Source of the DNA: an uncultured Chthonomonadaceae bacterium
Lineage (GTDB): Bacteria > Armatimonadota > Chthonomonadetes > Chthonomonadales > CAJBBX01
Assembly (NCBI GenBank): GCA_964519955.1
Contig: CAZFLM010000008.1
Coordinates: 4,732 to 68,731, forward strand
Direction of reading: 5' to 3'
Length of the DNA stretch: 64,000 nt
A program made the translations under genes and the position numbers. Shown here one piece after another: positions 13,804 through 34,094 of the stretch. Numbering within the stretch: position 1 is the stretch's first letter; every line of letters starts with the position of its first letter. Under the pieces are notes generated by a model. It saw nothing but the letters and a program-made list of their open reading frames with translations. It was not told the origin of the DNA and did no database searches.

Positions 13804-14562
13804 CTAACTGTTCGGCCCTACCTCGCCGTCCGCCGCGCGCAGCAGGTTCGCCTCGCCATCCTCCGCGGGCCGCAGCAGCACCTCCGCGCCGGGCTCCGCA
13901 GGACGCAGCAGCGTTGCCCCCGCAGCCTCCGTCGCCATGCGCTCCTCGATGGCGGCGATGGCTTCCTCGGCGGCGCGGCGGATATCGTCGACCCAGCCCT
14001 CATCGTTCCCGGCGATGCCGGCGAGCGCAGGCAGGTCACTCCGGTCGCCGACATGCGCCAGTGCGGTGAGCGCGGCCATCACCAGCTCGGCGGGCGCGTC
14101 GTCCTGCCCGGCGGCCGACGGGAGGAGCCTCTGGATGGGCGTGGCGTTGCGCCGGCACAGCAGGGGAGCGTCCTCGGGGCGCACGCGCTGCAGGAGATCG
14201 GCCAGCAGCGGCGCGATCTCGGCGGTGTAGGGCCCCCAGCCGAAGCCGACGCCGCGCTGGTTCATCAGAAGGGGGATAGCCCGCACGTCGCCTGCCCGCG
14301 CGAGTGCGAGGATGGCCTCGCGGTAGGCCTGGCGGTGCGCCTTCAGGCGGCGGATGGCCGTGCGGCCGATGAACCACCCCGCCAAGGCGCCGAGGACAGC
14401 GAAGACGGCGGCCTTGAGCAGCGAGCGGCCGTCCAGAATCGGGGTGACACCCGCCACGATGGCCAGGGTGACGACCGTCGTGATGGCCGAAACCGAGCGC
14501 TGATAGGCAGTCTGCCCGCGCACCACGTCAGCTCTGAGTTGCTCCAGTACCTCCTCGCTCAC
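13804..14562 (-). CDS. LLRP-tail paralog 1: 2-TM, HEAT-like repeat protein with a triple LLRP C-terminal tail
   Basis: GTG at 14562 (VSEEVLEQL...) aligns with MSEEP of paralog 3 and has the same upstream GAGGTG. Two hydrophobic helices. ALTALAHVGDRSDLPALAGIAG is a HEAT-like repeat. Tail: ATLLRPAEPGAEVLLRPAEDGEANLLRAA. Confidence 0.8.
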   Translation of the reverse strand: MSEEVLEQLRADVVRGQTAYQRSVSAITTVVTLAIVAGVTPILDGRSLLKAAVFAVLGALAGWFIGRTAIRRLKAHRQAYREAILALARAGDVRAIPLLMNQRGVGFGWGPYTAEIAPLLADLLQRVRPEDAPLLCRRNATPIQRLLPSAAGQDDAPAELVMAALTALAHVGDRSDLPALAGIAGNDEGWVDDIRRAAEEAIAAIEERMATEAAGATLLRPAEPGAEVLLRPAEDGEANLLRAADGEVGPNS

Positions 14563-14627
14563 CCGCGCACCTCGTTCCGCTGTTGCTCTTCGCCCGAGGC
14601 CGCACGCAGCGCCGAGGCGCCGGCGGC
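14559..14627 (-). pseudogene. Relic of the C-terminus of a further LLRP-tail paralog (truncated by the mazEF cassette)
   Basis: Translates AAGASALRAASGEEQQRNEVRG*, matching the tail EAYLLRAAESEEEQRNEVRG* of the copy ending at 16867. Its TGA overlaps the GTG of paralog 1 (GTGA), as at the intact junctions. Confidence 0.6.
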
Positions 14628-14633
14628 TTACCA

Positions 14634-15020
14634 CTAGGATGGGTTGCCTTCACCGCCTGGGGCAGGCGGGCTGGTCAGACCTAGTGTGTGCGCCAACGCC
14701 TCGTCCACGGTGCTCATCGCCGGCCAGTCGCCGATCAACCTGTCGACCTCGCTGTCGAGGATGGTCGCGATGTTGTCGGTCATGATGACGGAGTCGGTGA
14801 GTAGCCCGCTCTGTTGTCCGGCCGATGAGCGCAGCGCCACCGTCACGCGGCTTCGGTGTCCTGCCCGCGCCATGTTGCTGGTGATCATGGCGACCACCGA
14901 TTGCGGAAGTCCCGTTCCCAGGTCGTCTGCGTGCACGACGAGTGCTGGCCGGCGCTTGGCGGTTCTCAGGTCGCTGTTCGGGAAGAGGACCAGGACGATC
15001 TCGCCCCGCCTACAGGGCAT
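14634..15020 (-). CDS. mazF: Type II toxin, MazF/PemK family endoribonuclease
   Basis: MPCRRGEIVLVLFPNSDLRTAKRRPALVV...VVAMITSN is the typical PemK signature. Its start overlaps the antitoxin stop by 11 nt. Confidence 0.85.
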   Translation of the reverse strand: MPCRRGEIVLVLFPNSDLRTAKRRPALVVHADDLGTGLPQSVVAMITSNMARAGHRSRVTVALRSSAGQQSGLLTDSVIMTDNIATILDSEVDRLIGDWPAMSTVDEALAHTLGLTSPPAPGGEGNPS

Positions 15021-15252
15021 CGTAGACGTCCATGTCCGGGCGGCTCCAGTCACCCGCGAATGCGCTCAGGCGGCCTCGCAGGTCTGCGGCCTGTTCCGGT
15101 CCGATCCCTCGCGCGGCGAGGTCGGTCTCTGCGGCGGAGTCGGCGGTGTCCAGGAGCTGAAGCAGGAACTCGGCGGGCCCGATGCCGCACCTCGTGGCAG
15201 CTCGCCGCAGGCGGGCCTCTTGCTGCGGTGACAGCTCCAGACGCAGTGTCAT
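15010..15252 (-). CDS. Cognate antitoxin (MazE-like position)
   Basis: 81 aa starting MTLRLELSPQQEARLRRAA. A perfect AGGAGG RBS lies 7 nt upstream of the ATG at 15252. It sits immediately upstream of, and overlaps, the toxin gene. Confidence 0.7.
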   Translation of the reverse strand: MTLRLELSPQQEARLRRAATRCGIGPAEFLLQLLDTADSAAETDLAARGIGPEQAADLRGRLSAFAGDWSRPDMDVYDAL

Positions 15253-15273
15253 TGTAGCTACCTCCTGTATTGC

Positions 15274-15302
15274 AGTATACGGCCCGCTCGTGCCCATGTC
15301 AA
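15274..15302 (-). promoter_or_regulatory. Consensus sigma70 promoter of the TA cassette (TTGACA-17-TATACT on the minus strand)
   Basis: On the minus strand: TTGACA (15302-15297), a 17-nt spacer, TATACT (15279-15274), then AGGAGG and the ATG at 15252. Confidence 0.6.
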
Positions 15303-15320
15303 CCGGGGCCTATATGGTGC

Positions 15321-16085
15321 TCACCCGCTCCGATCCGCATCTTCCGCCGCGCGCAGCAGGTTCGCCTCGCCGTCCTCGGCCGGGCGCAGCAGTACCTCCG
15401 CGCCTGGCTCGGCGGGGCGCAGCAGCGTGGCGCCCGCCGCCTCCTGCGCGAGGCGCTCCTCGATGGCGGCGATGGCGTCCTCGGCGGCAGCTCGCAGAAG
15501 TTGGACGGGCTGCGCGTTCGAGTCACAGGCGGCGAGTTGACGCAGCCGTGCCAGGTCCTGCCCGTCGCCTGTGCGCTCCAGCGCCGCGATGGCAGCGAGC
15601 GCCAGTTCCTTCGTCTCCTCCCGGATCGGCAGCGCATTGGGGCGGAATGGGAGAAGCGAGCTGATAGGCCGGCGGAACCGGAGCTGTGTGGACTGGGTTG
15701 GGTCGTCCGCAAGCTTCGTCAGCAGTCCTATCAGTCGCCTCCGCGCCTGGCTCGCGTTGTCGCCCATTGCGTCGATGTAGTATTCGATCAGCCGTGGCAG
15801 TGCCCTCACGTCGCCGAGATCGGCCGCCGAGAACAGGGCGGCGCGAAGGCGCCCGCTGCGCCGGGTCCCGTCCGCGATGCACAGTATCTGGACGCACATC
15901 GGTGGCGCCACATAGAGCATGGCCTGGAGCATGCCCCGCGCTACCGTGCTCGCCGGACAGCGAATGGCGACCGCAAACCCGATCGCGTACCCTGAGAGCG
16001 ATAGCACCCACAGCGCGATCCGGCGAGTCCGGGAAGCCCGCTTGGCTGTGTCTATCAGCGCGTCCGGGTTGCGAGTGGCGTTCAT
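15321..16085 (-). CDS. LLRP-tail paralog 2
   Basis: 254 aa. Two TM helices (IALWVLSLSGYAIGFAVAI; MLQAMLYVAPPMCVQILCIA). HEAT-like AIAALERTGDGQDLARLRQLAA. Tail ATLLRPAEPGAEVLLRPAEDGEANLLRAA. ATGA overlap with the upstream paralog. Confidence 0.8.
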   Translation of the reverse strand: MNATRNPDALIDTAKRASRTRRIALWVLSLSGYAIGFAVAIRCPASTVARGMLQAMLYVAPPMCVQILCIADGTRRSGRLRAALFSAADLGDVRALPRLIEYYIDAMGDNASQARRRLIGLLTKLADDPTQSTQLRFRRPISSLLPFRPNALPIREETKELALAAIAALERTGDGQDLARLRQLAACDSNAQPVQLLRAAAEDAIAAIEERLAQEAAGATLLRPAEPGAEVLLRPAEDGEANLLRAAEDADRSG

Positions 16086-16870
16086 GTGCGCGCCTCACGT
16101 CCCTGATCTTCCGACGCGCGCAGCAGGTTCGCCTCGCCGTCCTCGTCCGGACGCAGCAGCGTCTCCGCGCCAGGCTCAGCGGGTCGCAGCAGCGTGGATC
16201 TCGCGGCTTCCTGCGCCAGGCGGGCCTCGATAGCGGCGGCGGCTTCCGTGGCGGCGCGGCGGATCGGGATGCCCCAGTCCGCGGTCTGGCTCGGAACCGC
16301 CAGCGCCTCGATCCTGTAGAGGTCCCCGCGGCCGCCGATGTGCTTCAGGGCGCTGAGGGCGGCGAGCACGAACGCGGACCGGTCGGCGATGTCGGAAGGC
16401 GCGGTCTCCCCGATCGGGAGCCGCGAACTGATCCTGGCCGCCCACTCAGGGCCCTCCATGCGGGGCGAGCCCGGGCGCACGCGCGGCAGCAGAGCGGTGA
16501 GCAGCTCGTCGACGAGTTGCCGGTCCATGGCGGGGATCAGGCCGGTGCCCGATAGCAGGAGTGGGCGGATGCACCGCACCTCACCACCCCTCGCGGCTCG
16601 CTCGATGGCCTGTGCAAGCCGGCGCCGATGCGCCGCGGCGCCCCCTCGGTTCCGCAGGCGGTACCGTATGCCCCCCGCGAGCACCACCGCAGTCAGTACC
16701 GCCAATAACCGGGTGTCGGACAGGTGCAGCGCAGCGCAGGAGATGAACGCGAACAACGCGATGTTCCCGGTTGTGCTGGCGTCCTTCTGGCATGCGGCGC
16801 ATGCGCGCAGTTGGCGCTGCACCTCCTCCCACAGTGCGTCTCTCTCGGCTCGCGCCGGCTCCTCGCTCAT
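16082..16870 (-). CDS. LLRP-tail paralog 3
   Basis: ATG at 16870 (MSEEPARAERDALWEE...). The upstream 119 codons of the track ORF overlap paralog 4 out of frame. Tail STLLRPAEPGAETLLRPDEDGEANLLRAS. ATGA overlaps at both ends. Confidence 0.8.
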   Translation of the reverse strand: MSEEPARAERDALWEEVQRQLRACAACQKDASTTGNIALFAFISCAALHLSDTRLLAVLTAVVLAGGIRYRLRNRGGAAAHRRRLAQAIERAARGGEVRCIRPLLLSGTGLIPAMDRQLVDELLTALLPRVRPGSPRMEGPEWAARISSRLPIGETAPSDIADRSAFVLAALSALKHIGGRGDLYRIEALAVPSQTADWGIPIRRAATEAAAAIEARLAQEAARSTLLRPAEPGAETLLRPDEDGEANLLRASEDQGREART

Positions 16871-17367
16871 CCGCGCACCTCGTTCCGCTGTTCCTCCTCG
16901 GACTCCGCCGCGCGCAGCAGGTACGCCTCGCCGTCTTCCGCCGGGCGCAGCAGGACCTCCGCGCCGGGCTCCGCGGGCCGGAGCAGCGTGGCGCCCGCGG
17001 CCTCTTGCGCCAGGCGCTCCTCGATGGCGACGATCGCTTCCTCGGCAGCGCGGCGGACCGGGGTGCCCGCGCCCGCGTACTCCTCCTCCTCGGCGAGCAA
17101 GCGGATGCGCGGCAGGTCGCGTGCTCCGCCGACGTGCTTCAGGGCAGACAGGGCGGCGAGGACGAGGGGCTCGTCGGCAGCAGGAGGGCGGGATGCTGGC
17201 CCGCTCGGCAAGAGGCGGGCGATCCAACTCGTCCCGCGCGCATCCAGAGCGGTGCGATGCTCGGGACGCACCGTCGCGAGTAGGTCGATGAGCAGCGCTC
17301 GCCCCTCGGGAGCGTCGGCTCCAAGTCGAGACCCGAGCTGGTAAGCAAGGTGCGGGATCATCGACAC
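16867..17367 (-). CDS. LLRP-tail paralog 4, C-terminal (HEAT-like + tail) half of a split copy
   Basis: 166 aa with no TM segment. ALSALKHVGGARDLPRIRLLAE plus tail ATLLRPAEPGAEVLLRPAEDGEAYLLRAA. It starts 10 nt after the stop of the ORF 17377-17676, which supplies the missing 2-TM part. Confidence 0.7.
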   Translation of the reverse strand: MSMIPHLAYQLGSRLGADAPEGRALLIDLLATVRPEHRTALDARGTSWIARLLPSGPASRPPAADEPLVLAALSALKHVGGARDLPRIRLLAEEEEYAGAGTPVRRAAEEAIVAIEERLAQEAAGATLLRPAEPGAEVLLRPAEDGEAYLLRAAESEEEQRNEVRG

Positions 17368-17376
17368 ATAACCACG

Positions 17377-17676
17377 CTAAGCCGATTCGAACAGGGCGCG
17401 GCGGTGTGCGCGGCTCCGAGCGCGCTGCTCGTGCAAGGCGACCGGCAGACCGACCACGAGGGGTACTGCGATGGGCGAGACCGCAAGCCAGGGCTGGTGC
17501 GCGTAGGTTCGCAGGAGCGACATGACGATGATCGCTGCAATCGTGACGGCGAAAGCCGGCAGCAGCACCAGGTTCCTCAGCCTGTCGTTCCGCCGATCAA
17601 GGCGTTCCAACTCGGCCCAATGGGGCCATACCGCCTCGTCTGCCATCAGCTCGGCCCTTAGCTCTGCTTCGCCCAC
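17377..17676 (-). CDS. LLRP-tail paralog 4, N-terminal 2-TM half of a split copy
   Basis: GGAGG then GTG at 17676 (alternative ATG at 17646). Two TM helices, then RARSRAHRRALFESA*, comparable to AAAHRRRLAQAIERAA of paralog 3. The start position is uncertain. Confidence 0.55.
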   Translation of the reverse strand: MGEAELRAELMADEAVWPHWAELERLDRRNDRLRNLVLLPAFAVTIAAIIVMSLLRTYAHQPWLAVSPIAVPLVVGLPVALHEQRARSRAHRRALFESA

Positions 17677-20706: not shown

Positions 20707-20908
20707 GGGTGGGTCCCTCCGTGCCGGCGCGGCTGGGCGAGCGCGCGAGCGTGTGGCCAAGGCGTGTTCGTGGGCGCCGGGTTCATGCGGTGCAGTTCGT
20801 CGCGGCTGGCGGAGGCACCTGCCACGCGAAGCCGGCCGCGACCGTATGGTAGGCTGAGCACCGCTGACAAGCGGCCGATCACTCTCGCACCAGAGGAGCT
20901 ACCCGACG

Positions 20909-23122: not shown

Positions 23123-23738
23123 AGGTTCCTCCCTGGGCGTCTCCCCGGACGCCCTGTCATGGACGGCAGCCAGGCCGGCTTCGCTGCGACGGCGATCGGC
23201 ACCGTCCGTTGGTCCTCCGTCTTGATTGACGTGCCGATAGTGGGGCGCTCGGGTCCGTGCCGTCGGAACATCGGTTCCGACGTCCTGCAGATGGGCGTTC
23301 CCGATCGGCAATGACCGCGACGCGCGGGGGGACGCGCTCTTACCTATTGTCGGCGTCAGCCGCCGCCAACCGCACCCGGTGGGAGTGCGGTGCTTTGACG
23401 GCCTCGCAGCCCAGCAGGCCTGGCGGATGTGCGGGGGCGCGGTCGGCTGCCGTGGCGCGCTCGGTGCCTCAGCCGCCCGAGCGGCGGGCAGGGGCTAACG
23501 CCGCAGGCAACCTGGACCAACAATGCATGCAGTACTACCAGTGTCGATCCGCGCGGCGCTCGGCCTCGACGGACTTCCTCGGTTCGTGCAGGTCTTTGGG
23601 CGTCCGAGCGCGGATATACCCGCAACACCGTCGGGACGCGCACGCCGACTGGCTTGCGTCGCTGCAGCGTCCCCATGGGTGCGTCGGCATCACGTGGAAT
23701 CCTGCCTCCTCGCCGGCGGTCCATCGAAAAGGGAGTAC

Positions 23739-25040
23739 ATGGGCATGCTAGGAACGTCGATCAGAACGACTGCGGCCACGATCGTCGGAGGCGGCGCGTT
23801 GGTCTTGATGGCGGCGGCCGCGTGGGCTCAGACGCCCGCCAAGCCGGCGCCTGGCCTCACGATCACCGGCGAAGCTCGGTTCCGCTACGAGAACCGGCAG
23901 AACGCCGCCTTCTCAGAGGCGCAGGACAACAATCCGAAGGACGAGTTGGCTCGGCTGCGCGTCGGCTTCAACTACCAGTTCGAGAGTGGCCCGCGCATCT
24001 ACGTCCAGCCCCAGTTCAACTGGCAGCACAACGCGTGCGTCGCCAAGCCGAAGGGCACGGACTGGGAGGGCGACGTCTTCAACGCCTACGTCGAGTTCGG
24101 CAACAAGGCAGCGAAGTGGCGCGTCGGGCGGCAGGAACTCACGTACGGCGAGGGACGCCTGCAGGCCGCCTCGAACTGGAACAACTCCGGACGGAGCTAC
24201 GACGCGGCGAAGGTGACCTACACCGATGCCACTACGAAGACGGACCTCTTCGTGGGCAAAGTCGGCCATGTAGGCCAGAAGTACCAGCACCCGCTGTTCG
24301 CCGGCGCCTACTCCACCATCACCCCCCGCAAGGACCTGAGCTACGACGCGTACCTGCTGTTCAAGTCGCTGGATGTGAACGCGACCACCCAACAGGAGAT
24401 CTACACGATCGGCAGCCGGCCGAAGTACAAGTGGCGCCAGGTGGACGCCTACGGAGAAGCGGCGTACCAGTTTGGCCAGTACGGTGACCGCACGGTGAGC
24501 GCCTACGCGTACATGGCGAATGTGGGCTACACCTTCAAGGGCTCGTCGGCACTCCGCGTGGCAGCCGAATACGACTTCGCCAGTGGCGGCAACCCGACGT
24601 CCGGTACCTATAACACGTTCGATCAGTTGTTCCTGACGAGTCACAACATCGTCGACAGCATGATCGGCATGTACGACGGCGTCGGCTGGCGCAACATGCG
24701 GGCCTGGCGTCTGAACGCCAACTTCAAGCCTGCGAAGAAGTGGACGATCGCGGTCGACGGATACCACTTCATGCTCGACAACGCCACGGACTACTGGTAC
24801 ACCAAGGGCGGCGGCACGATGACGGGCGCGGACGGTGCCGGCATTCGCGACGCCACCGGCGCATCGGGCCGAGACCTGGGCAAGGAACTCGACCTGAGCG
24901 TCTCCTACGAGGTGCGCAAGGGCTTCGTCGTCGGTGGGCAGGTATCTCGCTTCTTCCCGGGCCCGTTCGTCCGCAGCGCCAACAAGGGCTTCGCCGACAA
25001 CGGCACCTGGTTCTGCTTCCAGACGGAGTACAAGTGGTAG
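23739..25040 (+). CDS. Outer-membrane beta-barrel, alginate-export (AlgE-like) family
   Basis: AAAAGGGAG RBS. MGMLGTSIRTTAATIVGGGALVLMAAAAWA is a signal peptide. LTITGEARFRYENR is an N-terminal motif of this family. Alternating beta-strand pattern, and the protein ends ...FQTEYKW. Confidence 0.6.
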   Translation: MGMLGTSIRTTAATIVGGGALVLMAAAAWAQTPAKPAPGLTITGEARFRYENRQNAAFSEAQDNNPKDELARLRVGFNYQFESGPRIYVQPQFNWQHNACVAKPKGTDWEGDVFNAYVEFGNKAAKWRVGRQELTYGEGRLQAASNWNNSGRSYDAAKVTYTDATTKTDLFVGKVGHVGQKYQHPLFAGAYSTITPRKDLSYDAYLLFKSLDVNATTQQEIYTIGSRPKYKWRQVDAYGEAAYQFGQYGDRTVSAYAYMANVGYTFKGSSALRVAAEYDFASGGNPTSGTYNTFDQLFLTSHNIVDSMIGMYDGVGWRNMRAWRLNANFKPAKKWTIAVDGYHFMLDNATDYWYTKGGGTMTGADGAGIRDATGASGRDLGKELDLSVSYEVRKGFVVGGQVSRFFPGPFVRSANKGFADNGTWFCFQTEYKW

Positions 25041-25162
25041 CGAGTAGCGAGTAGCCAGAAGTCAGAAGTCAGAAGCCAGAAGCCAGAAGCCAGAAGGGGC
25101 TGCCCCTTCTGGCTTCTGGCGTTCAACTTTCGACTTTCAACGCTTCACCTTCGACCTCCGAC
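25041..25162. repeat. Composite heptanucleotide repeat region: (CGAGTAG)x2, (YCAGAAG)x6, an 18-bp hairpin, (nTTCRAC)x6
   Basis: 25041-25054 CGAGTAG x2. 25055-25096 YCAGAAG x6. Hairpin GCCAGAAGCCAGAAGGGG/CCCCTTCTGGCTTCTGGC at 25082-25120. 25121-25162 holds heptamers of the form nTTCRAC. Confidence 0.85.
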
Positions 25163-25183
25163 GTACCTCGCCCTTCCGCCCCT

Positions 25184-26059
25184 TCACGCCGCCGTGGGCG
25201 CCGCCGCTGGTTCGGGCGGCCGGTTGTCCTGGTGCAGTTGGTTGCGGCCGGCCCGCTTGGCCGAGTAGAGCGACCGGTCGGCGTCTCGCAGCATGTCCTC
25301 GATCGTCCCGGTCGGCTTCTCGTACGTCACCGCGCCGACGCTGAAGGTGACCGGCCAGCCGTGCCGCCGCATCTCGCCCAGCAGGCGCTCTCGCACGCGC
25401 TCGATGCCGCACCGGCTCGGCGCCTCGGCGGTCTCCGGAAGCACCAGGGCGAACTCGTCGCCGCCCAGCCGCGCCACGATGTCGGTCGACCGCGTCTCGG
25501 TCGCCAGCGTCTGCCCAATTGTGCGCAAGCACTGGTCGCCCACGCTGTGGCCGAGCGTGTCATTGAGGTCCTTGAAGTGGTCGCAGTCGATCACCGCGAC
25601 GGTGAAGGGACGTCCGTAGCGTGCGCACCGGGCCAACTCGCGCCGTGCGATCTCGTAGAAGCCCGCGACGTTGGCGATGCCAGTCAGGTGATCGATGCGC
25701 GCGGCAAGCGTCTCCGCGGCGAGCTTGTCGCGCAAAGAGACGAGCGTCGCGACGCAGAACCCGAAGAAGACGGTGGTCGCGGCGGCGTTCCACACCTCGA
25801 TGTGCAGGCGCTCTCCGGGCAGCCCTGCCGCGACGTCGGTCAGCAGATTGGCGGCGATGCAGGCGGAGGCAGTCAGCATACCGGGACCCACCCCCATGCG
25901 CCACGCGACGAGGCTGATGGGAAGCAGGTAGAAGGGGCCGAGTTGGGCTTCGTAGCCGGAGAGGAAGTCCGTGTAGCCAATGGCGACGACGATCAGCGCG
26001 GCGAAGAGGACAGCCGTGCTCCGGCGGCAGTTCGTGAGGGTGTCCAGTAAGTGAGCCAT
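25184..26059 (-). CDS. Membrane-anchored diguanylate cyclase (GGDEF)
   Basis: ATG at 26059 (MAHLLDTLT...). 3-4 TM helices. IDHLTGIANVAGFYE...VIDCDHFKDLNDTLGHSVGD...RSTDIVARLGGDEFALVL has both the GGDEF motif and an RxxD I-site. Confidence 0.9.
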   Translation of the reverse strand: MAHLLDTLTNCRRSTAVLFAALIVVAIGYTDFLSGYEAQLGPFYLLPISLVAWRMGVGPGMLTASACIAANLLTDVAAGLPGERLHIEVWNAAATTVFFGFCVATLVSLRDKLAAETLAARIDHLTGIANVAGFYEIARRELARCARYGRPFTVAVIDCDHFKDLNDTLGHSVGDQCLRTIGQTLATETRSTDIVARLGGDEFALVLPETAEAPSRCGIERVRERLLGEMRRHGWPVTFSVGAVTYEKPTGTIEDMLRDADRSLYSAKRAGRNQLHQDNRPPEPAAAPTAA

Positions 26060-26169
26060 CGCACCATCCAACCGGTACCATTGTCGGTTCGTTCGGTGCG
26101 TACCTGTACCACCCACTGCGCGTTCCAGTTGGTACGGTCCACGTCGGGGGCCAAACGCCCTGATAGCCT

Positions 26170-26973
26170 CTACGTGCCCGGGCGGTTGGATTGTGCCTGC
26201 TGCTCTTCGGCGGGCCGCAGCAGGTGCTCCGTTTCGGCGGCAGGTGCGCCGGCCGCCGGGCGAAGCAGCGTCTCGGCAACCGGTGCTGCGGCAGGGCGCA
26301 GCAGCACGTGGCGGGTGCCGGCCTCCTCGGCCAGTTCGGCGAGTTCGTCGCGCACCTCCGCCGCGGTTGAGGCCAGCTCCGGGTCGGTCCGCGAGCGCGC
26401 AAGCGCCTCGATCATCGGCAGGGCGCGGGTGTCTTGCGCGATGGCGATGGCGCGGAGGGTTGCGAGAACCAGCCGCCGGTGAGCGGCGCTGTCGCGGGGG
26501 CGTGCCCGCTCGATGACCTCGAGGAGCGCGGCGCGCGCGGACCGGCTCAGGAGGCCGACTTCGGTGGAGCTGAACTCCATGAACGCGCTTGCCAGCCGGC
26601 CATCGGCGGAGCGCAGCACATCGAGGTCGTACTCGCCCGGGCTCGCGGCGGAGGCCGCGTCGGCCCATGCCGTCTCAACCCGGATCGCCTCGCGTACCAG
26701 GCGCGAGGCGCGCCAGCCGCAGACCAACTGGCGGGCCGCGAGGGCAGCCATACCCGCCGCCCAACAGATCGCCATCGCCGTTTGCTCACCGCGAGCGAGG
26801 TGCCACCCCTGGCTGGCCGCGAGCGCACACACCATGCCGAGCACGCCCATGACGCAGGCGAACCCAACCAGCACATGGCCGCCGAGGAACGTGCGCCTCA
26901 GGCGGCGCAGAAGCGCGTCTATACGAGCCGCGCACTCATCGTCCTGCTTGTCCAGGTCCGCGCTGCCGCACAT
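26170..26973 (-). CDS. LLRP-tail paralog 5
   Basis: ATG at 26973. Two TM helices. HEAT-like TLRAIAIAQDTRALPMIEALAR. Tail HVLLRPAAAPVAETLLRPAAGAPAAETEHLLRPA. Confidence 0.75.
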   Translation of the reverse strand: MCGSADLDKQDDECAARIDALLRRLRRTFLGGHVLVGFACVMGVLGMVCALAASQGWHLARGEQTAMAICWAAGMAALAARQLVCGWRASRLVREAIRVETAWADAASAASPGEYDLDVLRSADGRLASAFMEFSSTEVGLLSRSARAALLEVIERARPRDSAAHRRLVLATLRAIAIAQDTRALPMIEALARSRTDPELASTAAEVRDELAELAEEAGTRHVLLRPAAAPVAETLLRPAAGAPAAETEHLLRPAEEQQAQSNRPGT

Positions 26974-27790
26974 GCTGTTCGGCCTCCACTCCCGATGGGT
27001 TTGACGGCCGCAGCAGGTGCTCCGTTTCGGCGGCAGGTGCGCCGGCCGCCGGGCGAAGCAGCGTCTCGGCAACCGGTGCTGCGGCAGGGCGCAGCAGCAC
27101 GTGGCGGGTGCCGTGCTGGTCGGCGAACTGGCCCATCACCCCTGCGATCCCCTGCGCTGCTTCGCGCACCTCAGGATGCTGCGCCGCCGCCCCGACGTGC
27201 TCGATGGCGGGTAGGCTGGCCAGGTTTCCCAGGTAGAACAGTGTCTCGACCACGGCGATCGCGAACTGCGGATCGTCGGCATCGGTGAGGCGCGAAGCCG
27301 CCCCCGTCAGCAATGGCCCAAGGTGGCCGGTCGCGCATGCCGGTGGCCCCGCAAGCTGATTGCGCGCGAACAGCCCGCGCAGGAGCCGGGCGACCGTCTG
27401 CTGTGCCGCACGCCGCTCGCGCTGCGCCTCCTCACCCAACTCGGCTGTCGGCCCGTGCGTGCAGAAGGGGCCGGCCGCCCGCTCGACTGCGCCCAGGCAC
27501 CGCATGACCCGCAGCCCCGCAGCCCAATCCGATAGGAGCGACCAGGTCGGCGCCACGATCAGGGCCGCCAGGCCGGCATACAGGACAGCCGCGGCCGGGC
27601 TGCGGCCGTGGACCAGGAGCTGCAGAACGAGAGCCAGACCCACCAGCCCCGCGCCTGTCCATCGGATCCGGTCCGCGAGCCTCTGTGCTCGCCGCGCCCG
27701 CGCTGCCGCCGCCAGAGCGCTGTGGGCCGAGCGCTCGACGCGAGCCAGGCCGTTGCTCTCCCCACATCCTGTCGGCTGCGCGCCGTGCAA
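26936..27790 (-). CDS. LLRP-tail paralog 6
   Basis: TTG at 27790 preceded by AAGGGGG. Two TM helices. VETLFYLGNLASLPAIEHVGAA. Tail HVLLRPAAAPVAETLLRPAAGAPAAETEHLLRPS. Overlaps the paralog 5 start by 38 nt. Confidence 0.7.
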   Translation of the reverse strand: MHGAQPTGCGESNGLARVERSAHSALAAAARARRAQRLADRIRWTGAGLVGLALVLQLLVHGRSPAAAVLYAGLAALIVAPTWSLLSDWAAGLRVMRCLGAVERAAGPFCTHGPTAELGEEAQRERRAAQQTVARLLRGLFARNQLAGPPACATGHLGPLLTGAASRLTDADDPQFAIAVVETLFYLGNLASLPAIEHVGAAAQHPEVREAAQGIAGVMGQFADQHGTRHVLLRPAAAPVAETLLRPAAGAPAAETEHLLRPSNPSGVEAEQHVRQRGPGQAGR

Positions 27791-27862
27791 GTCGGTTGGC
27801 CCCCTTTCGACGTGAGGAACGATCGCTGCAAGTGGTGCGATTGCATCCTCCGCTTTGCCCCC

Positions 27863-29035
27863 TCAGCCCTGCCGCAGGGGCAGCGCCAATCGGAACACCG
27901 TGCCGGCCTCCGGCGAGGTGCTGAAGCTCACCGACCCCTTCAGAACACGCTCGGCGAGCAGCTTCATGGCGAAGGTGCCGAACCCGCGGCCCGCGCCCGG
28001 CTTGGTGCTGAAGTGGCGCTGGAACACCCGCAGCGCGATGGCGTCCGGGATCGCGGCGGCGTTCCACACGGAGAAGGCTGTGCCGCCGTCCTCCTCGACC
28101 CACAGCCGGACCTCGCCGCCTGCCTCCGTCGCCTCGAACGCGTTCGTCAGCATGTTCGTGAGCACCCGGCGCAGCGCGGAACGGTCGGTATGGACCCGCG
28201 CGCCGGCCGGCGCCGCCGTCAGCGCCAGGCGCTTGCCCGCGGCCGAGGGGTGCTGGGCCACCAGTGCCTGCAGCTCGCCGATGATGCCGTCGATCGGTAT
28301 GCCCTCGATGGCCGGCCTGTACTCGACATCCGCGCTGCCCAGGATCGCCCGCTGCAGCGCGATCTCGTCGGCGAGGCGCCCCGACAGCATGCGCGCCCGC
28401 TCAAGCAGCGCTTCGCGCTCATCGTCCGTCGAGCCCGGCACCAGATCGGAGCAGCCCTGCAGCGCCGTCGCGACGTTGGCGATGTCGTGCAGGAAGATGC
28501 GCTCCAGGGCTGCCCGCCGCTCCGGCGCCGTCACGTCCTGCAGCAGCAGCACCGTGAGACGGCGGCCCTCCAGCTCGACCGGCGTCGCCAGCACCCTCAG
28601 GCAGATCTCCACCGGCTGGCCCTCTCGCGTGACGGTCGCGACGCACTGCCGCTCGCACGGGGCGCCTGCCTGCTGGCTGCTGACGATGGCGATGGCCGCT
28701 CCGCACGAGGCGCAGTGCCGCGACGTGCCGCAGCGCCCCGGCATATCGTCGGCGTGGGCGCAGCCGATGGCCTCGCCGGGCCGAAGCCCGAGGACGCCCT
28801 CCGGGTCCTCGACTCCGAGGTCGGCGAGGAACGCGCGGTTCACAGCAAGGATCTGGCGGTGCTCGTTCAGGACGGCGACGACGCCGGCCGCGGACGCGAG
28901 GATGCCGTCGACAACGGGGTTATCGACGAGTGTCTCAACCTGACGGCGCACCACGTCGGCTGTGGCGCGCTCGGGGCGGGCGAAGTAGGTGTCTATCGGT
29001 CGCTCCTTGTGTTCGTGCGCGTGCTGCTGGCGCAC
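27863..29035 (-). CDS. Cytoplasmic PAS-type sensor histidine kinase
   Basis: NEHRQILAVNRAFLADLG is PAS-like. FLHDIANVATAL is the H-box. RVLTNMLTNAFEAT is the N-box. HFSTKPGAGRGFGTFAMK is the G-box. Confidence 0.88.
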   Translation of the reverse strand: MRQQHAHEHKERPIDTYFARPERATADVVRRQVETLVDNPVVDGILASAAGVVAVLNEHRQILAVNRAFLADLGVEDPEGVLGLRPGEAIGCAHADDMPGRCGTSRHCASCGAAIAIVSSQQAGAPCERQCVATVTREGQPVEICLRVLATPVELEGRRLTVLLLQDVTAPERRAALERIFLHDIANVATALQGCSDLVPGSTDDEREALLERARMLSGRLADEIALQRAILGSADVEYRPAIEGIPIDGIIGELQALVAQHPSAAGKRLALTAAPAGARVHTDRSALRRVLTNMLTNAFEATEAGGEVRLWVEEDGGTAFSVWNAAAIPDAIALRVFQRHFSTKPGAGRGFGTFAMKLLAERVLKGSVSFSTSPEAGTVFRLALPLRQG

Positions 29036-29281: not shown

Positions 29282-31828
29282 ATGCCAGTCACAGCGCGCG
29301 CCTACGTGCTGCTGGTCTGTGCCGCCGGGGCTGCGTCAGCCCTCGGCGCCGTGATGCTGCAGGTGCCGAGGAGCGCCTACCACACGTGGGACCTGCCGGT
29401 CTTCGTGCTGCTGGCCGCCATCGCCGGCGGCAAGAAGATCGAGCTGGTTCGCCCGCGCGGATCGCACGATGGCGCCTCCATGTCGCTCGGGTACGCGGTC
29501 ACAGTTGCCGCCATGCTGCGCTTCGGGCCGGCCGCCGGCCTGCTGGTGGGCAGCATCACAGCGTTGTCCAGTTGCGTCTATCCGAAGCCCTATCCCGCCC
29601 ACCAGTTGGTCTTCAACGTCGCGCTTACCGCCGTCGAGTCGTGGCTCGCCGGCCTGGCCTACCTGCAGCTCAACGGATGGAGCCTGGCTCTGCGCCCCTA
29701 CGAGTCGGCCGGTCCCATCGTCGCCTCCTGCCTGGTCAGCTACCTGGTCAACACCGGCGGCGTGTCGATCGTCATCGCTCTGTGCTCCGGCGAGCGGATC
29801 GGGACGCTCTGGCGCACTACCTTCCTGTGGACCGCGCCGAGTTACTTCGCCGGCGCTAGCATCAGCGCCCTGGGCCTGTTCCTGTTCGGCGAGCGCACGG
29901 GCGTCATCCTGCTCTTCGGCGCGCCGGTCGCCTTCCTCACCTACTACTCGTACGCGGTGTACACCGCCCGCGCCGAGGAGCACCGTAAGCACATCGAGGA
30001 GCTGCAGGTCAGCCAGGCCCAGCTCGCCGATCTCTACCTGGCCACCATCAAGAGCCTGGCGCTTGCCATCGACGCCAAGGATAAGTACACGCACCAGCAC
30101 ATCGTGCGCGTTCAGCGGTACGCGGTTGCCGTGGCGGTCCATCTGGGCCTCAGCGAGAGCGACATCGAGGGCGTCAAGACCGGCGCGCTGCTGCACGACA
30201 TCGGCAAGCTGGGAGTCGCCGAGTACGTGCTGCTGAAGCCGGGGCGGCTGGCCGAGGACGAGTTCAAGCACATCCAGCGCCACCCGGAGATCGGCGCTGC
30301 CATCCTGGACCCGGTGAGCTTCCCGTGGCCGGTGGTGCCGGCCGTCAAGCACCACCACGAGAAGTGGGATGGCACCGGCTACCCGGACGGGCTTCGCGGT
30401 GAGCAGATCCCGCTGCCGGCCCGCATCCTCGCCGTGGCGGATGTCTACGACGCGCTTACTTCGACCCGCTCGTACCGGACGGCCTGGCCGCACGAGAAGG
30501 CTGTCGATGTGATCCGCGACGGCTCGGGCAAACACTTCGACCCGACAGTCGCCGCCGCGTTCCTGGCGGTCATCGGCGGCGTGATCTCCCAGATGGCGGA
30601 GGAGGGGATCGGCCCGCTGGCGCCCCATCACGTCGAGCCGAACCTGGGCACGATGAAGGCTGACCTCGCCGCGCGAGACATCCAGCGCGCCGCCGCCGAC
30701 CTGTGGGCTCTATACGAGGTCGCGCAGACGCTGTCGTCGAGCCTTGCGCTCGCGGAGACCGTGGACATCCTCTCTCGCAAGCTGGAGGCGATGTTCCCGG
30801 GGTCGGCATGCGCGTTCCTCTTGATGGACAAGACCCGCAGGCAGCTCGACGTCCGGGCCGCCTCCGGCGTGAACCGCGAGTTCCTGACGGGGGCACATAC
30901 GCTCGGCCCGACAAGCCGGTCGATGCGCGCCGCCGTCGAGCGCGAGACCTACAACGGCGGCTTCGACCAGGACGACCTGCTGCTCACCTCCGTTCCGACT
31001 ACGGAATGGGTGCCCATCGAGTCGTCGCTGATCGTGCCAGTCGTCCATCGTGGCGAGGTGCTGGGCTCCGTCAACTTCTACCACCCGCAGGCCGGCGCGT
31101 TCGGCGCCCACGAGCAGCAACTGGCGGAGATGGTGGCCCAGCGGGCGGCCTGCGCGCTCTACAACAGCATCGCGTTCGAGCGCGCGCGCGGCCACGCCGA
31201 GACCGACCCGCTCACCGGGCTCTACAACATCCGCTATCTGACCGAGCAGGTCGACCGCCACTGCTCCCAGACGCGGCTGCGCTGCCCGGTATGTGGTCTG
31301 CTGGACGAGGACGGATGCGGCCACGACGCCCCGCGCACGGTGGGGCGCGAGGACGATCGCTTCGCGCTGCTGTGCCTCGACCTCGACAGCTTCAAGCCGA
31401 TCAATGACAACTTCGGCCATCAGCAGGGCGACGACGTGCTCCGGCGCGTGGCGAGGGTTCTCCGCGAAACGGTGCGCCACACCGACGTCGTGGCGCGCTA
31501 CGGCGGCGACGAGTTCCTCGTGATGCTGCGCTCCGCCACGCGCGAGGAAGCCGAGGCGATGGCGCACCGGCTGGCCCTCGCCATCGAGCAGCAGGACATG
31601 GGCGTCGACCATCCGGCCTACGGCGCCCTGTCCATCGGCGCGAGCGTGGGCTACGCCTGCTTCCCGGCCGACGGCACCGACTGCGCCACCCTCATCGCCT
31701 CGGCCGACGCGTGCATGTACCGGGTCAAGGCGGAGCGCAAGCTCGACGCCATGGCCACCCGCGGCCGCAAGCACTGGCCCGCCCACGCGCCCGGCACCCC
31801 GCCCTGGGAGCACAAGGAAGCCGCGTAG
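29282..31828 (+). CDS. Multidomain c-di-GMP protein: membrane domain, HD-GYP, GAF, GGDEF
   Basis: HQHIVRVQRYA...LLHDIGKLGV...HHEKWDGTGYPDGL is the HD-GYP signature. A GAF-like middle follows. LTGLYNIRYL...LDLDSFKPINDNFGHQQGD...RHTDVVARYGGDEFLVML has GGDEF with RxxD. Start at 29282 (AAGGGG RBS), alternative ATG at 29237. Confidence 0.88.
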   Translation: MPVTARAYVLLVCAAGAASALGAVMLQVPRSAYHTWDLPVFVLLAAIAGGKKIELVRPRGSHDGASMSLGYAVTVAAMLRFGPAAGLLVGSITALSSCVYPKPYPAHQLVFNVALTAVESWLAGLAYLQLNGWSLALRPYESAGPIVASCLVSYLVNTGGVSIVIALCSGERIGTLWRTTFLWTAPSYFAGASISALGLFLFGERTGVILLFGAPVAFLTYYSYAVYTARAEEHRKHIEELQVSQAQLADLYLATIKSLALAIDAKDKYTHQHIVRVQRYAVAVAVHLGLSESDIEGVKTGALLHDIGKLGVAEYVLLKPGRLAEDEFKHIQRHPEIGAAILDPVSFPWPVVPAVKHHHEKWDGTGYPDGLRGEQIPLPARILAVADVYDALTSTRSYRTAWPHEKAVDVIRDGSGKHFDPTVAAAFLAVIGGVISQMAEEGIGPLAPHHVEPNLGTMKADLAARDIQRAAADLWALYEVAQTLSSSLALAETVDILSRKLEAMFPGSACAFLLMDKTRRQLDVRAASGVNREFLTGAHTLGPTSRSMRAAVERETYNGGFDQDDLLLTSVPTTEWVPIESSLIVPVVHRGEVLGSVNFYHPQAGAFGAHEQQLAEMVAQRAACALYNSIAFERARGHAETDPLTGLYNIRYLTEQVDRHCSQTRLRCPVCGLLDEDGCGHDAPRTVGREDDRFALLCLDLDSFKPINDNFGHQQGDDVLRRVARVLRETVRHTDVVARYGGDEFLVMLRSATREEAEAMAHRLALAIEQQDMGVDHPAYGALSIGASVGYACFPADGTDCATLIASADACMYRVKAERKLDAMATRGRKHWPAHAPGTPPWEHKEAA

Positions 31829-32000: not shown

Positions 32001-32090
32001 CCCCGATAAAGGCAAACCTGTCGCAAGGCAGGGGCGCAAAGCCGACGGGCCTCCCGCCGCACTGGGAGGAAGCCGGGCTGCCGAAAGGGC
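32001..32090 (+). promoter_or_regulatory. c-di-GMP-I (GEMM-I) riboswitch aptamer, copy 1
   Basis: AAAGGCAAACC-UGUC-GCAA-GGCA-GGGGCGCAAAGCC...GGGAGGAAGCCGGGCUGCCGAAAGG. Compare the V. cholerae Vc2 pattern GGCAAACC-stem-GAAA-stem-GGGACGCAAAGCC...AGCGGGGUUACCGAUGG. Confidence 0.75.
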
Positions 32091-32194: not shown

Positions 32195-32306
32195 AATCGA
32201 CAAAGGCAAACCGGCCGAGAGGCCGGGACGCAAAGCCATGGACCCTAGCTCGCCGCGCCTGCCGCACTCCGGCGCCGCGGGACGGGCAGCCAGGTTGCCG
32301 AAAGCG
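32195..32306 (+). promoter_or_regulatory. c-di-GMP-I (GEMM-I) riboswitch aptamer, copy 2
   Basis: CAAAGGCAAACC-GGCC-GAGA-GGCC-GGGACGCAAAGCC...GGCAGCCAGGUUGCCGAAAGC. It ends ~25 nt before the GAGGGAGAG RBS and the ATG at 32331. Confidence 0.8.
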
Positions 32307-32330: not shown

Positions 32331-34094
32331 ATGAGTATGAACGGTGGCCGTTTCGCCGCCGGTTGCGCGCGTGACATGCGTCGGGCCTGCCTGGCCGCGC
32401 TGGCGCTCGCGTCCTTACTCGCCTGGCCTGCTGCCTCACAGGCGAGCGATAGCGCCGCACGTGGCCCCGCCGCGTTCGGCAAATGCGATACGTTGCTCCG
32501 CGTCCAGATGGAGCGCAACTCCGCCAAGGGATGGACGTCCGCCGTCCTGTGGATCGACGGCCAGCTCACCGCGGAGCGCCGTGCCAAGTTCGGCGCGCTG
32601 CACGTCGATGTCTACCGCAACCTGCCCGTCATCTCGTCGGTGGCCGCCCGCATTCCGAACCGGAACCTGCGTGCGGTGGCCGACCTATCGTTTGTCAAGC
32701 GCCTGTCGTCCGACGCGACTGTCCTCAAGAACGACGAGTACACCGTGGAGGCCACCGGCGCAGACGTCGCCTTCTCCAAGAACCACCTGACTGGCAAGGG
32801 CATCACGGTCGCCGTGCTCGACAGCGGCCTCCGCGAGTCCTACGATCTGACCGAGTCGCTGTCGCGGCGCCGCGTGCTCGCCAGGGTCTCGTTCGTGCCA
32901 ACCGACCGCAGCCCGGACGACCAGTGCGGGCACGGCACGCACGTTGCCGGTATCATCGGCGGCAACGGCAAGTCGTCCACCGGCCCCTGGTTCACCCGCA
33001 CGTTCTACGGCGTTGCCCGCCGCGCCAGCCTCGTCAGCGTTCGCGTGCTGGACGAGTACGGTCAGGGCAACGTCAGTGCGGTTCTGGCCGGCATCCAGTG
33101 GTGCATCGACAACCGCTCCCGCTATGGAATCCGCGTGCTGAACCTGTCGCTCGGCCATCCGGTCGGCGAGAGCTTCACCACCGACCCGCTCTGCCGGGCC
33201 GCCGAGGCCGCCTGGAAGTCCGGCATCGTCGTGGTGTGTGCCGCGGGCAACATGGGGCGCTCGATGTATGAGCAGGACCCGGCCCTGGACAATGAGGGCT
33301 ATGGGACTGCCTACGGCTCCATCCAGTCGCCGGGCAACGACCCGTACGTCATCACCGTCGGCGCGATGAAGCGCATGGACGGGGTCCGGGCCAATGACCG
33401 GATCGCTACCTACTCCAGCCGCGGCCCGAGCCGTCTCGACTTCGTCGTGAAGCCGGACATCGTGGCCCCCGGCAACCGCGTCATCTCGCTGGACGTGGAC
33501 AACGGCTACCTGGAGCGGACTTGCGCGTCCACCAACATGGTGCCGAAGTCCTACTACATGGTCCGCGCCAGCAACGACGCGTCCGATAGCTACTTCTATC
33601 TCTCCGGCACGTCCATGGCCGCGCCGGTGGTGTCTGGGGCCGCCGCCCTGATGCTCGAGGCGGATCCCACGCTCTCGCCGGACACGGTCAAGGCGCGGCT
33701 GATGATCGCAGCCGACAAGTGGCTCGCGCCGAACGGACTGGCCGATGTTTGCACCTATGGTGCGGGCTATCTCAACATCCCGGCCGCCCTGGCCTGCAGG
33801 TACAGGGCCACCCAGGCTTCGCTCAGCCCGATGCTGGTGCGAGACGATGCCGGCAGCGTGTTCCTGTGCGCCTACGGCGACGTCACCGGGACGCGGGCCA
33901 TCTGGGGGGGAGGAAACACCTCAGTAGTCGACGCGACCCGGGCGATCTGGGGTCCCGCGACTGCCGAGAACACGCCGGCCTTGACGAACAGCTACCAGCT
34001 CTACGGGCTCAACGTGTGGTTCGATGGTTGGGTCTGGGGCGAGGGGTATACAGCCGCCGATCTGTCGATGACGACGATCATCGGGGAGGGGTAA
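32331..34094 (+). CDS. Secreted subtilisin-like serine protease (peptidase S8)
   Basis: Signal peptide ...ALASLLAWPAASQA. Catalytic triad motifs VAVLDSGL (Asp), HGTHVAGIIGG (His) and GTSMAAPVVSGAAALM (Ser). Confidence 0.92.
   Translation: MSMNGGRFAAGCARDMRRACLAALALASLLAWPAASQASDSAARGPAAFGKCDTLLRVQMERNSAKGWTSAVLWIDGQLTAERRAKFGALHVDVYRNLPVISSVAARIPNRNLRAVADLSFVKRLSSDATVLKNDEYTVEATGADVAFSKNHLTGKGITVAVLDSGLRESYDLTESLSRRRVLARVSFVPTDRSPDDQCGHGTHVAGIIGGNGKSSTGPWFTRTFYGVARRASLVSVRVLDEYGQGNVSAVLAGIQWCIDNRSRYGIRVLNLSLGHPVGESFTTDPLCRAAEAAWKSGIVVVCAAGNMGRSMYEQDPALDNEGYGTAYGSIQSPGNDPYVITVGAMKRMDGVRANDRIATYSSRGPSRLDFVVKPDIVAPGNRVISLDVDNGYLERTCASTNMVPKSYYMVRASNDASDSYFYLSGTSMAAPVVSGAAALMLEADPTLSPDTVKARLMIAADKWLAPNGLADVCTYGAGYLNIPAALACRYRATQASLSPMLVRDDAGSVFLCAYGDVTGTRAIWGGGNTSVVDATRAIWGPATAENTPALTNSYQLYGLNVWFDGWVWGEGYTAADLSMTTIIGEG

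Follow-up and report, generated by a model that had tools for sequence, protein, structure and literature searches.

The window analysed here is a stretch of 64,000 nucleotides (nt) of DNA from an uncultured Chthonomonadaceae bacterium (contig CAZFLM010000008.1). On its minus strand, between positions 25184 and 29035, two related open reading frames (ORFs), which we call paralogs 5 and 6, lie between a gene for a sensor histidine kinase and a gene for a membrane diguanylate cyclase. Both belong to a large and unnamed protein family whose C-terminal tail, marked by three Leu-Leu-Arg (LLR) motifs, is also carried by proteins with unrelated bodies, and their placement between a kinase and a cyclase is specific to this lineage. 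A preliminary description of this DNA had given the order of the four minus-strand ORFs as kinase, paralog 6, paralog 5 and cyclase, with short gaps or overlaps between them; the order, the coordinates and the tight spacing all agree with what we measured on the DNA. The features of the locus are listed below, with lengths in amino acids (aa) and with TM for transmembrane segment.

27863..29035, minus strand: PAS-like sensor histidine kinase, 390 aa, soluble, Cys-rich; first gene of the putative operon
26936..27790, minus strand: paralog 6, ORF of 284 aa from a TTG at 27790; predicted two-TM hairpin, HEAT-like domain and triple-LLR tail
26170..26973, minus strand: paralog 5, ORF of 267 aa with a GGAGG-N9-ATG start; predicted two-TM hairpin, HEAT-like domain and triple-LLR tail
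25184..26059, minus strand: membrane diguanylate cyclase with GGDEF domain, 291 aa; last gene of the putative operon
27008..27097, minus strand: tail motifs of paralog 6, LLRPAAAPVAETLLRPAAGAPAAETEHLLR, from the translation and a six-frame pattern scan
26215..26304, minus strand: tail motifs of paralog 5, LLRPAAAPVAETLLRPAAGAPAAETEHLLR, from the translation and a six-frame pattern scan
26213..26331, no strand assigned: copy 1 of a 119-nt direct repeat, the tail-coding DNA of paralog 5, 97% identical to copy 2
27006..27124, no strand assigned: copy 2 of the same repeat, the tail-coding DNA of paralog 6, 97% identical to copy 1

The stop codon of the kinase gene is separated by 72 nt from the TTG of paralog 6, which has AAAGGGGG 9 nt on its 5' side. 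The 3' end of paralog 6 overlaps the start of paralog 5 by 38 nt, measured from the stop codon of the former to the ATG of the latter (26973), with the GGAGG lying 9 nt 5' of that ATG. A further 110 nt separate the stop codon of paralog 5 from the ATG of the cyclase gene (26059).

Family membership and architecture

Paralogs 5 and 6 matched no Pfam family at E<=0.1 and no NCBIfam model, and PADLOC, which covers anti-phage defence, returned nothing for them or for paralogs 1 and 2 of the same window. The Pfam and NCBIfam searches also found no PilZ domain, receiver domain or other domain that binds nucleotides or cyclic di-GMP (c-di-GMP) in paralogs 5 and 6. Literature searches, made for the motif strings and for HEAT repeats in Chthonomonas or Armatimonadota, gave nothing relevant. 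The family is uncharacterised and unnamed: Pfam and NCBIfam lack a model of it, and we could find no literature on it.

A word-indexed search returned almost exclusively copies from the same genome, together with two distant proteins that share the tail. Exhaustive HMMER searching of 1.84 billion representatives returned 4279 of them at E<=1e-3, of which 2517 also passed E<=1e-10. When aligned with a 280-position family profile that was built without the sequences of the window, paralogs 5 and 6 matched over their full length (98.7 and 96.8 bits respectively, aligned span ~31-278 of the profile), and the four other members of the family in the window, paralogs 1-4, scored 93-126 bits. After removal of their tails paralogs 5 and 6 still scored 47.4 and 44.0 bits (E of 1e-10 and 1e-9 at Z = 1e6), and the homology therefore spans the body of the protein as well as the tail. 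The two are 35% identical in amino-acid sequence overall, and they probably represent an old local tandem duplicate inside the family.

Hydropathy peaks at residues 34-52 and 67-85 of paralog 5, and hydrophobic segments at residues ~42-62 and 68-86 of paralog 6, mark the two membrane helices, with Arg-rich stretches flanking both of the segments. We infer from this pattern an N-in/C-in hairpin, which would anchor the proteins in the inner membrane and leave the C-terminal part in the cytoplasm. In the AlphaFold2 model of paralog 5 (mean predicted local distance difference test score, pLDDT, of 75.8) two helices (residues 4-54 and 62-109) are followed by a domain of helical repeats (117-224, pLDDT 85-97), and the tail (225-267, pLDDT ~50) is unstructured. 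The model of a Chthonomonadaceae member of the family (mean pLDDT 74.9) agrees with it in showing two long helices, a repeat domain and an unstructured tail; across both models the repeat domain has a pLDDT of 80-97 and the tail one of ~50 or below, with no secondary structure.

The family profile matched alphaRep chains (6e-38 to 1e-9), CpcE/F (5n3u, ~1e-4), MTH187 (1e-3) and deoxyhypusine hydroxylase. Weak HEAT_2 (PF13646) matches were obtained for ten relatives, two of which, P0013 (33.4 bits) and P0136 (30.4 bits), passed the gathering score of 27.7 bits while the others fell below it, and there were two weak matches to the CpcE model of NCBIfam. Foldseek gave no significant match in the PDB (E >= 0.05; the top entries were alphaRep, armadillo and karyopherin-alpha repeats), so the repeat type is established by the sequence profile alone. 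At the level of that profile, the predicted cytoplasmic domain is a HEAT-like solenoid of the PBS-lyase/alphaRep type. It has the same type of repeat as the PBS-lyase HEAT-like proteins (HEAT_2 PF13646/HEAT_PBS, CpcE/CpcF, MTH187, alphaRep), and the models are likewise all-helical solenoids. The known HEAT_PBS members, however, have neither the two-TM hairpin nor the triple-LLR tail, both of which are present in this family, and nothing suggests for it the bilin-lyase role, or the partner, of CpcE/CpcF. Longer members of ~480-560 aa (P0009, P0010, P0011, P0013 and others) consist of the whole hairpin-plus-solenoid module duplicated in tandem, with each module sometimes ending in its own triple-LLR tail, as in P0009, and P0158 and P0161 have an additional N-terminal HEAT domain.

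The other four family members of the window form an array of their own:

13804..17367, minus strand: family paralogs P1 (13804-14562), P2 (15321-16085), P3 (16082-16870) and P4 (16867-17367)

ATGA stop/start overlaps join P4 to P3 (16867-16870) and P3 to P2 (16082-16085), which suggests translational coupling within the array. A longer reading of paralog 4 (16867-17640, minus strand) is broken by a single in-frame TAG, which separates an upstream membrane-hairpin segment (LVLLPAFAVTIAAIIVMSLL..PIAVPLVVGLPVAL) from the called ORF of 166 aa with HEAT domain and tail; the interruption could mark a pseudogene or a split gene, or could be a sequencing error. Directly upstream of the array, next to P4, is a GH123 glycoside hydrolase gene (17740-20760). 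Synteny of this gene with a gene for a 1013-aa protein beside another paralog array (loci L003/L005) was considered and dropped, as tblastn found no similarity between them. Between P1 and P2 (14637-15297, minus strand) lie genes for a PemK/MazF-like toxin (1.4e-12) and a ribbon-helix-helix (RHH) protein, the latter recognised by a weak match to PF23807 (4.5e-4, 20.9 bits against a cut-off of 27 bits), and the two look like a type II toxin-antitoxin pair.

The triple-LLR tail

The tails of paralogs 5 and 6 both read TRHVLLRPAAAPVAETLLRPAAGAPAAETEHLLRP and contain three LLRP motifs each. A six-frame translation of the whole window contains the pattern LLR-x(6-16)-LLR-x(6-18)-LLR six times, and it is not a chance pattern, because each occurrence stands at the C-terminus of a different one of the six homologous ORFs. 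Of the top 150 relatives, nearly all end in ..CLPxLxxR..xTLLR[PA]..LLRPA..PxQLLR[PA].., the exceptions without this signature being few (e.g. P0015, P0028, P0045, P0072 and P0087). When 74 members were aligned (20% mean column identity), the three LLR triplets were the sole invariant columns. Their spacing is also nearly fixed: measured from start to start, the first interval is 14 residues in 81 and the second 15 residues in 112 of 137 tails. The proposal of the preliminary description that the number and identity of the motifs matter is supported across the family. The same description had called the tails of paralogs 5 and 6 divergent, which is correct with respect to the other copies in the window (spacings of 11 and 11 in paralogs 1-4) but not with respect to the family: of their two spacings, the first (12) belongs to a minority (6/137) and the second (15) is the family norm. 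The tail is acidic and has no hydrophobic helix or basic cluster, and in relatives the last LLR motif is followed by variable extensions of up to ~40 residues.

The agreement between the tails of paralogs 5 and 6 extends to the DNA. Their tail-coding sequences are 97.3% identical in nucleotides and their gene bodies 53-55%, with ~54% identity over the 300 nt immediately 5' of the tail. The same was observed for paralogs 1-4, in which the tail-coding sequences (13837-13911, 15351-15425, 16118-16192 and 16912-16986) are 82-91% identical and the bodies 50-65%, while the linker residues between the motifs differ between the 5/6 cluster and the 1-4 cluster. Because tails that are 97% identical follow bodies that are ~54% identical, we conclude that the tails have been homogenised by gene conversion within each local cluster. 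This homogenisation at the DNA level means that the agreement of the two tails at this locus is not independent evidence of selection.

It could be argued from such homogenisation, and from the ~70% GC of the window, that the tails have no function at all, i.e. that they are low-complexity ends of high-GC genes, rich in Ala, Pro, Leu and Arg, that gene conversion keeps alike. However, the triplets are invariant and equally spaced in genomes of 46-65% GC and in different phyla, the same tail is found on unrelated protein bodies, and the pattern is absent from the rest of the six frames of the window. Motif invariance, spacing and portability contradict this explanation, and we regard it as scarcely credible.

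The portability of the tail was determined by searching the GTDB species representatives and metagenomes for a degenerate DNA pattern of fixed spacing (T-LLR-x11-LLRPA-x10-LLR). In GTDB 66 loci matched, nearly all of them in metagenome-assembled genomes (MAGs) of Chthonomonadales/Chthonomonadaceae, with many loci per genome and frequent tandem arrays; the tail was also found in a Chloroherpetonaceae MAG. A few matches in Streptomyces and Proteobacteria were dismissed as chance matches in the wrong frame. The metagenomes yielded 56 loci with the tail pattern, of which 39 had HEAT-family bodies. In both sets the tail also ends proteins of other kinds: (i) Spo0M-domain proteins (PF07070, 1.6e-20 and 5.3e-17 in L070 and L071, with Spo0M-like proteins also in L061 and L125); (ii) a protein of two TM segments in which an INGxxYY..DF stretch is conserved (L027, L033, L081 and L099); (iii) another small membrane protein (L031, L089 and L117); and (iv) a soluble protein that looks beta-rich by sequence (L128). 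L066 too carries the tail on a body that is not HEAT-like. On the evidence of these sequences the tail is a portable module: apart from the Spo0M-domain proteins, three or more further small proteins, membrane-bound or soluble, carry it. A conserved, disordered and multivalent tail that is common to unrelated bodies argues for a docking or targeting function, in which it would act as a trivalent short linear motif.

Such a tail might instead be a degron, recognised by an AAA+ protease of the cytoplasm or the membrane or by its adaptor, in which case its unrelated bearers would be turned over together. Its C-terminal position, disorder and portability are those of degradation tags, and strict motifs joined by free linkers would suit recognition by one machine. 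Yet no protease gene recurs among 98 neighbours of family genes and nothing else about the tail is specific to proteases; the motifs do not lie at the extreme C-terminus, being followed by the extensions described above; and, to our knowledge, three copies at a fixed spacing would be unusual for a bacterial degron. We consider a degron decidedly unlikely.

The tail could also be a ligand of the family's own HEAT-like groove, bound by the solenoid of an adjacent protomer or paralog, so that the proteins would form head-to-tail assemblies at the membrane with the other tail bearers as clients. Alpha-solenoids of this type do bind extended peptides (the armadillo and karyopherin-alpha neighbours found by Foldseek were insignificant, E >= 0.05), most of the tail bearers are HEAT-like proteins that are highly paralogous and often in tandem, and the long forms of the family are tandem duplications of the whole module. 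In neither AlphaFold2 model, however, is the tail folded onto the solenoid. Within a cluster, moreover, homogenised tails are joined to solenoids that have diverged to 20-35% identity, a combination that fits a common external partner better than pairings specific to each paralog. Binding to the family's own groove therefore seems quite unlikely.

No described counterpart of the tail was found in the literature, and its resemblances to known systems are partial. Like the PEP-CTERM/exosortase and LPXTG/sortase signals, with which it may share a way of working, it is a short C-terminal signature found on unrelated bodies, in many copies per genome and for the most part within particular lineages. 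Unlike them it is acidic, disordered and predicted to be cytoplasmic, it does not have their hydrophobic helix and basic cluster, and no cognate processing enzyme is known or was found among the 98 neighbours; the tail is not a member of either system. The C-terminal peptide of FtsZ has a hydrophobic-Leu-Arg core that closes a disordered linker, as in the LLR tail, and in one Chthonomonadaceae MAG the FtsZ sequence terminates in DLDLPAFLRRR. This likeness is limited to P-x-[F/L]-L-R, whereas the LLR tail continues with Pro/Ala and has three copies, and we take the weak resemblance as a lead only. In eukaryotes, acidic dileucine signals ([DE]xxxL[LI]) are bound by alpha-solenoid adaptor complexes. 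The third LLR motif (D-P-x-Q-L-L-R) fits [DE]xxxLL, and the tail bearers themselves carry alpha-solenoids, but the dileucine system belongs to eukaryotic trafficking and the likeness may well be due to chance.

The kinase-cyclase setting

The kinase has a clear HATPase_c domain (2e-14 in Pfam) and a weak PAS_9 match (4e-4, under the Pfam cut-off). Its orthologous group is widespread, with members in Nitrospirae, Desulfobacterota, Anaerolineae and other taxa, and hundreds of homologues of 375-390 aa from several phyla are ~50% identical to it over the full length. In 120 homologues C92, C102, C108, C111, C131 and the phospho-acceptor H183 are invariant and H94 is kept in 96%, and the five invariant Cys residues fall in the PAS-like domain. 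In two other phyla (L075 and L076) the kinase homologue lies near genes for a glutaredoxin and the beta subunit of a ferredoxin-thioredoxin reductase (FeThRed_B). These features suggest a metal- or Fe-S-based sensor of redox state or oxygen, reminiscent of NreB. The cyclase is identified by its GGDEF domain (2.3e-40 in Pfam; TIGR00254, 2.5e-42, in NCBIfam), with the GGDEF motif and the RxxD I-site intact in the translation; its N-terminal membrane region gives a weak DUF4118 match. The Pfam scan found no receiver domain in the cyclase and no response regulator in the four-gene cluster.

The features that surround the cluster are:

25041..25183, minus strand: strong hairpin made up of repeated CCAGAAG/CUUCUGG heptamers; the cyclase and porin genes converge on it
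23733-25037: Alginate_exp porin gene, convergent to the cyclase gene
29282..31828, plus strand: divergent HD-GYP/GAF/GGDEF gene (HD_5 7e-36, GAF_2 2e-12, GGDEF 2e-37)
32002..32086, plus strand: c-di-GMP-I-GGC riboswitch aptamer 1 (Rfam RF03167, 66.1 bits, gathering score 59)
32196..32303, plus strand: c-di-GMP-I-GGC riboswitch aptamer 2 (Rfam RF03167, 64.9 bits)
32331..34094, plus strand: Peptidase_S8 (subtilase) gene, 3' of both aptamers (Pfam, 1.6e-51)

On the 3' side of the cyclase gene an inverted repeat (25066-25100 and 25102-25136) builds the hairpin, whose RNA fold has an energy of -74.8 kcal/mol (z = -5.6; none of 200 shuffles was equally stable). A simple scan for T-run terminators missed it; we think that it is probably a bidirectional terminator. 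The same scan called no terminator inside the four-gene cluster, and the two internal intergenic regions have no significant RNA structure (z = -0.25 and -0.62). With short gaps and one overlap between the genes, no structured RNA or terminator inside the cluster and a strong hairpin only after the cyclase, transcription of paralogs 5 and 6 together with the kinase and the cyclase, as a four-gene transcript, is plausible. The DNA of the hairpin region (25043-25136) is itself unusual, consisting of tandem AGAAGCC/CCAGAAG heptamers plus an inverted copy.

The preliminary description had also placed a divergent HD-GYP/GAF/GGDEF gene and two c-di-GMP riboswitches beside the cluster. Pfam matched all three domains of that gene, which probably starts at the ATG at 29282 (preceded by a GAAGGGG Shine-Dalgarno sequence), and Rfam confirmed both riboswitches, ~3 kb from the start of the kinase gene and ~4.2 kb from paralog 6. 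The tandem aptamers, the subtilase gene, the HD-GYP/GAF/GGDEF gene and the cyclase make up a small c-di-GMP island. Beyond the porin gene, on the minus strand, is a gene for a 625-aa protein (21437-23311) with no Pfam match, a start that resembles a signal peptide and a duplicated segment rich in Gly, Cys, His and Trp, GGGSGGGSNPGCGGGGDWGWPGGDWGCPG.

This setting had given rise to the suggestion that the family works within, or under the control of, a two-component or c-di-GMP circuit. All of its members, or paralogs 5 and 6 at the least, would for example be membrane scaffolds or anti-regulators and would couple the Cys-rich kinase to the diguanylate cyclase. Several features of the locus fit such a role. 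The paralogs are packed tightly and co-directionally with both genes, with a terminator-like structure only after the cyclase; the surroundings are rich in c-di-GMP functions; and solenoids of the HEAT-like kind typically serve as scaffolds that bind proteins. Since no response regulator adjoins the kinase and the cyclase lacks a receiver domain, an adaptor would be needed if the two communicate. In their position and membrane location paralogs 5 and 6 also resemble the accessory proteins of two-component and c-di-GMP systems (PilZ proteins and degenerate GGDEF/EAL proteins).

We determined how often signalling genes accompany the family by means of six-frame domain searches, which are independent of gene calls, over 117 other loci (161 family or tail ORFs, ~760 kb). 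Our own gene caller picked shadow ORFs at 70% GC; it was used only on loci of lower GC, where it was checked against independent gene calls. A GGDEF domain lay within 1 kb at two of the 117 loci (L062, where it is convergent, and L011) and a kinase within 1 kb at one (L102), and the order kinase, family member, family member, cyclase was found at none. The preliminary description had named the absence of conserved linkage to signalling genes in other genomes, together with a lack of co-transcription, as what would refute its suggestion, and such linkage is indeed absent across these loci, so that the suggestion is not supported for the family. The 98 immediate non-family neighbours, from ~55 Chthonomonadales loci, contained no recurring signalling domain in Pfam: the commonest families were adh_short (5) and methyltransferases (3), with all others at two or fewer, and since none of the 25 neighbour families listed is a signalling domain, no such domain occurs in more than two of the 98. 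In the annotated contexts of five relatives the family members have trp genes, nitroreductases, a SorC-type regulator and purine genes beside them, and no neighbouring kinase or cyclase.

The same result was obtained from the side of the kinase. In three contexts of kinase homologues in other phyla there is no family member and no GGDEF gene beside the kinase, and in L075 and L076 the kinase is followed instead by an unrelated membrane protein together with the glutaredoxin and FeThRed_B genes. The placement between kinase and cyclase is therefore lineage-specific and not a property of the family. Within the window itself, paralogs 1-4 adjoin the GH123 gene and the PemK/RHH pair and no signalling genes, and paralogs 5 and 6 differ from the PilZ and degenerate GGDEF/EAL accessory proteins in having no homologous domain, no receiver domain and no other domain for nucleotide binding, as well as no conserved linkage to signalling. 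Overall, scaffolds or anti-regulators that couple the kinase to the cyclase are unlikely. In this genome alone the two solenoid proteins could have been recruited as an adaptor between kinase and cyclase, which we likewise consider unlikely. Outside it the protein searches gave no close relative of either paralog, the sole near relative being a gene similar to paralog 2 on a 921-bp contig.

Candidate membrane-tethered adaptors with a putative docking tail

Taken together, the results favour a reading in which paralogs 5 and 6 are membrane-tethered HEAT-like adaptors, to which we assign a probability of roughly 55% as a whole, the local operon placement included. In this reading each protein would be anchored by its N-in/C-in hairpin and would expose a short HEAT-like alpha-solenoid to the cytoplasm. 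The intrinsically disordered acidic C-terminus, with its three invariant Leu-Leu-Arg-(Pro/Ala) motifs at near-fixed spacing, would dock or target its bearer to one cytoplasmic partner that all tail bearers share. At this locus the pair would probably be transcribed together with the Cys-rich sensor kinase and the membrane diguanylate cyclase.

Several points weigh against the adaptor reading. None of the 98 neighbours is a recurrent one that would be fit to serve as the binding partner, and AlphaFold2 docks the tail nowhere on the solenoid in either model. The docking role is argued from conservation and portability, and the membrane topology is predicted by the positive-inside rule and hydropathy. 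Our view of the taxonomic range is biased, as the DNA pattern used for the search selects canonical tails. In addition, paralogs 5 and 6 may, although this is unlikely, be functionally linked to the kinase or the cyclase in this particular organism.

The adaptor reading can be extended, more tentatively, to all of the proteins that carry the tail. The tail might be a cytoplasmic address label used throughout the lineage, with a dedicated receptor that reads the three LLR motifs at their fixed spacing and gathers otherwise unrelated proteins at one site or machine, in the organism of this window as in the other taxa in which the tail was found (mostly Chthonomonadales MAGs of the Armatimonadota, and a Chloroherpetonaceae MAG). 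This is possible, but we would put it below an even chance. If it is true, the cargo would be a defined set, with HEAT-like adaptors of the membrane by the dozen alongside Spo0M-like proteins and several small membrane proteins.

The negative result on signalling is useful in its own right, as it indicates that the signalling neighbourhood is no basis for annotating the family, and that it flags at most one lineage-specific operon. The tail itself deserves attention since portable and multivalent short linear motifs are rare in bacteria, and here a three-part motif is invariant across thousands of sequence clusters, in a family for which we found no name, curated model or paper. A peptide of ~35 residues corresponding to the tail is a simple handle for a partner search in the Armatimonadota, a phylum with little experimental biology. 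If the tail is indeed an address label, it would define a new bacterial system of protein targeting or assembly, which in this organism would be wired into an operon of a redox kinase and c-di-GMP synthesis.

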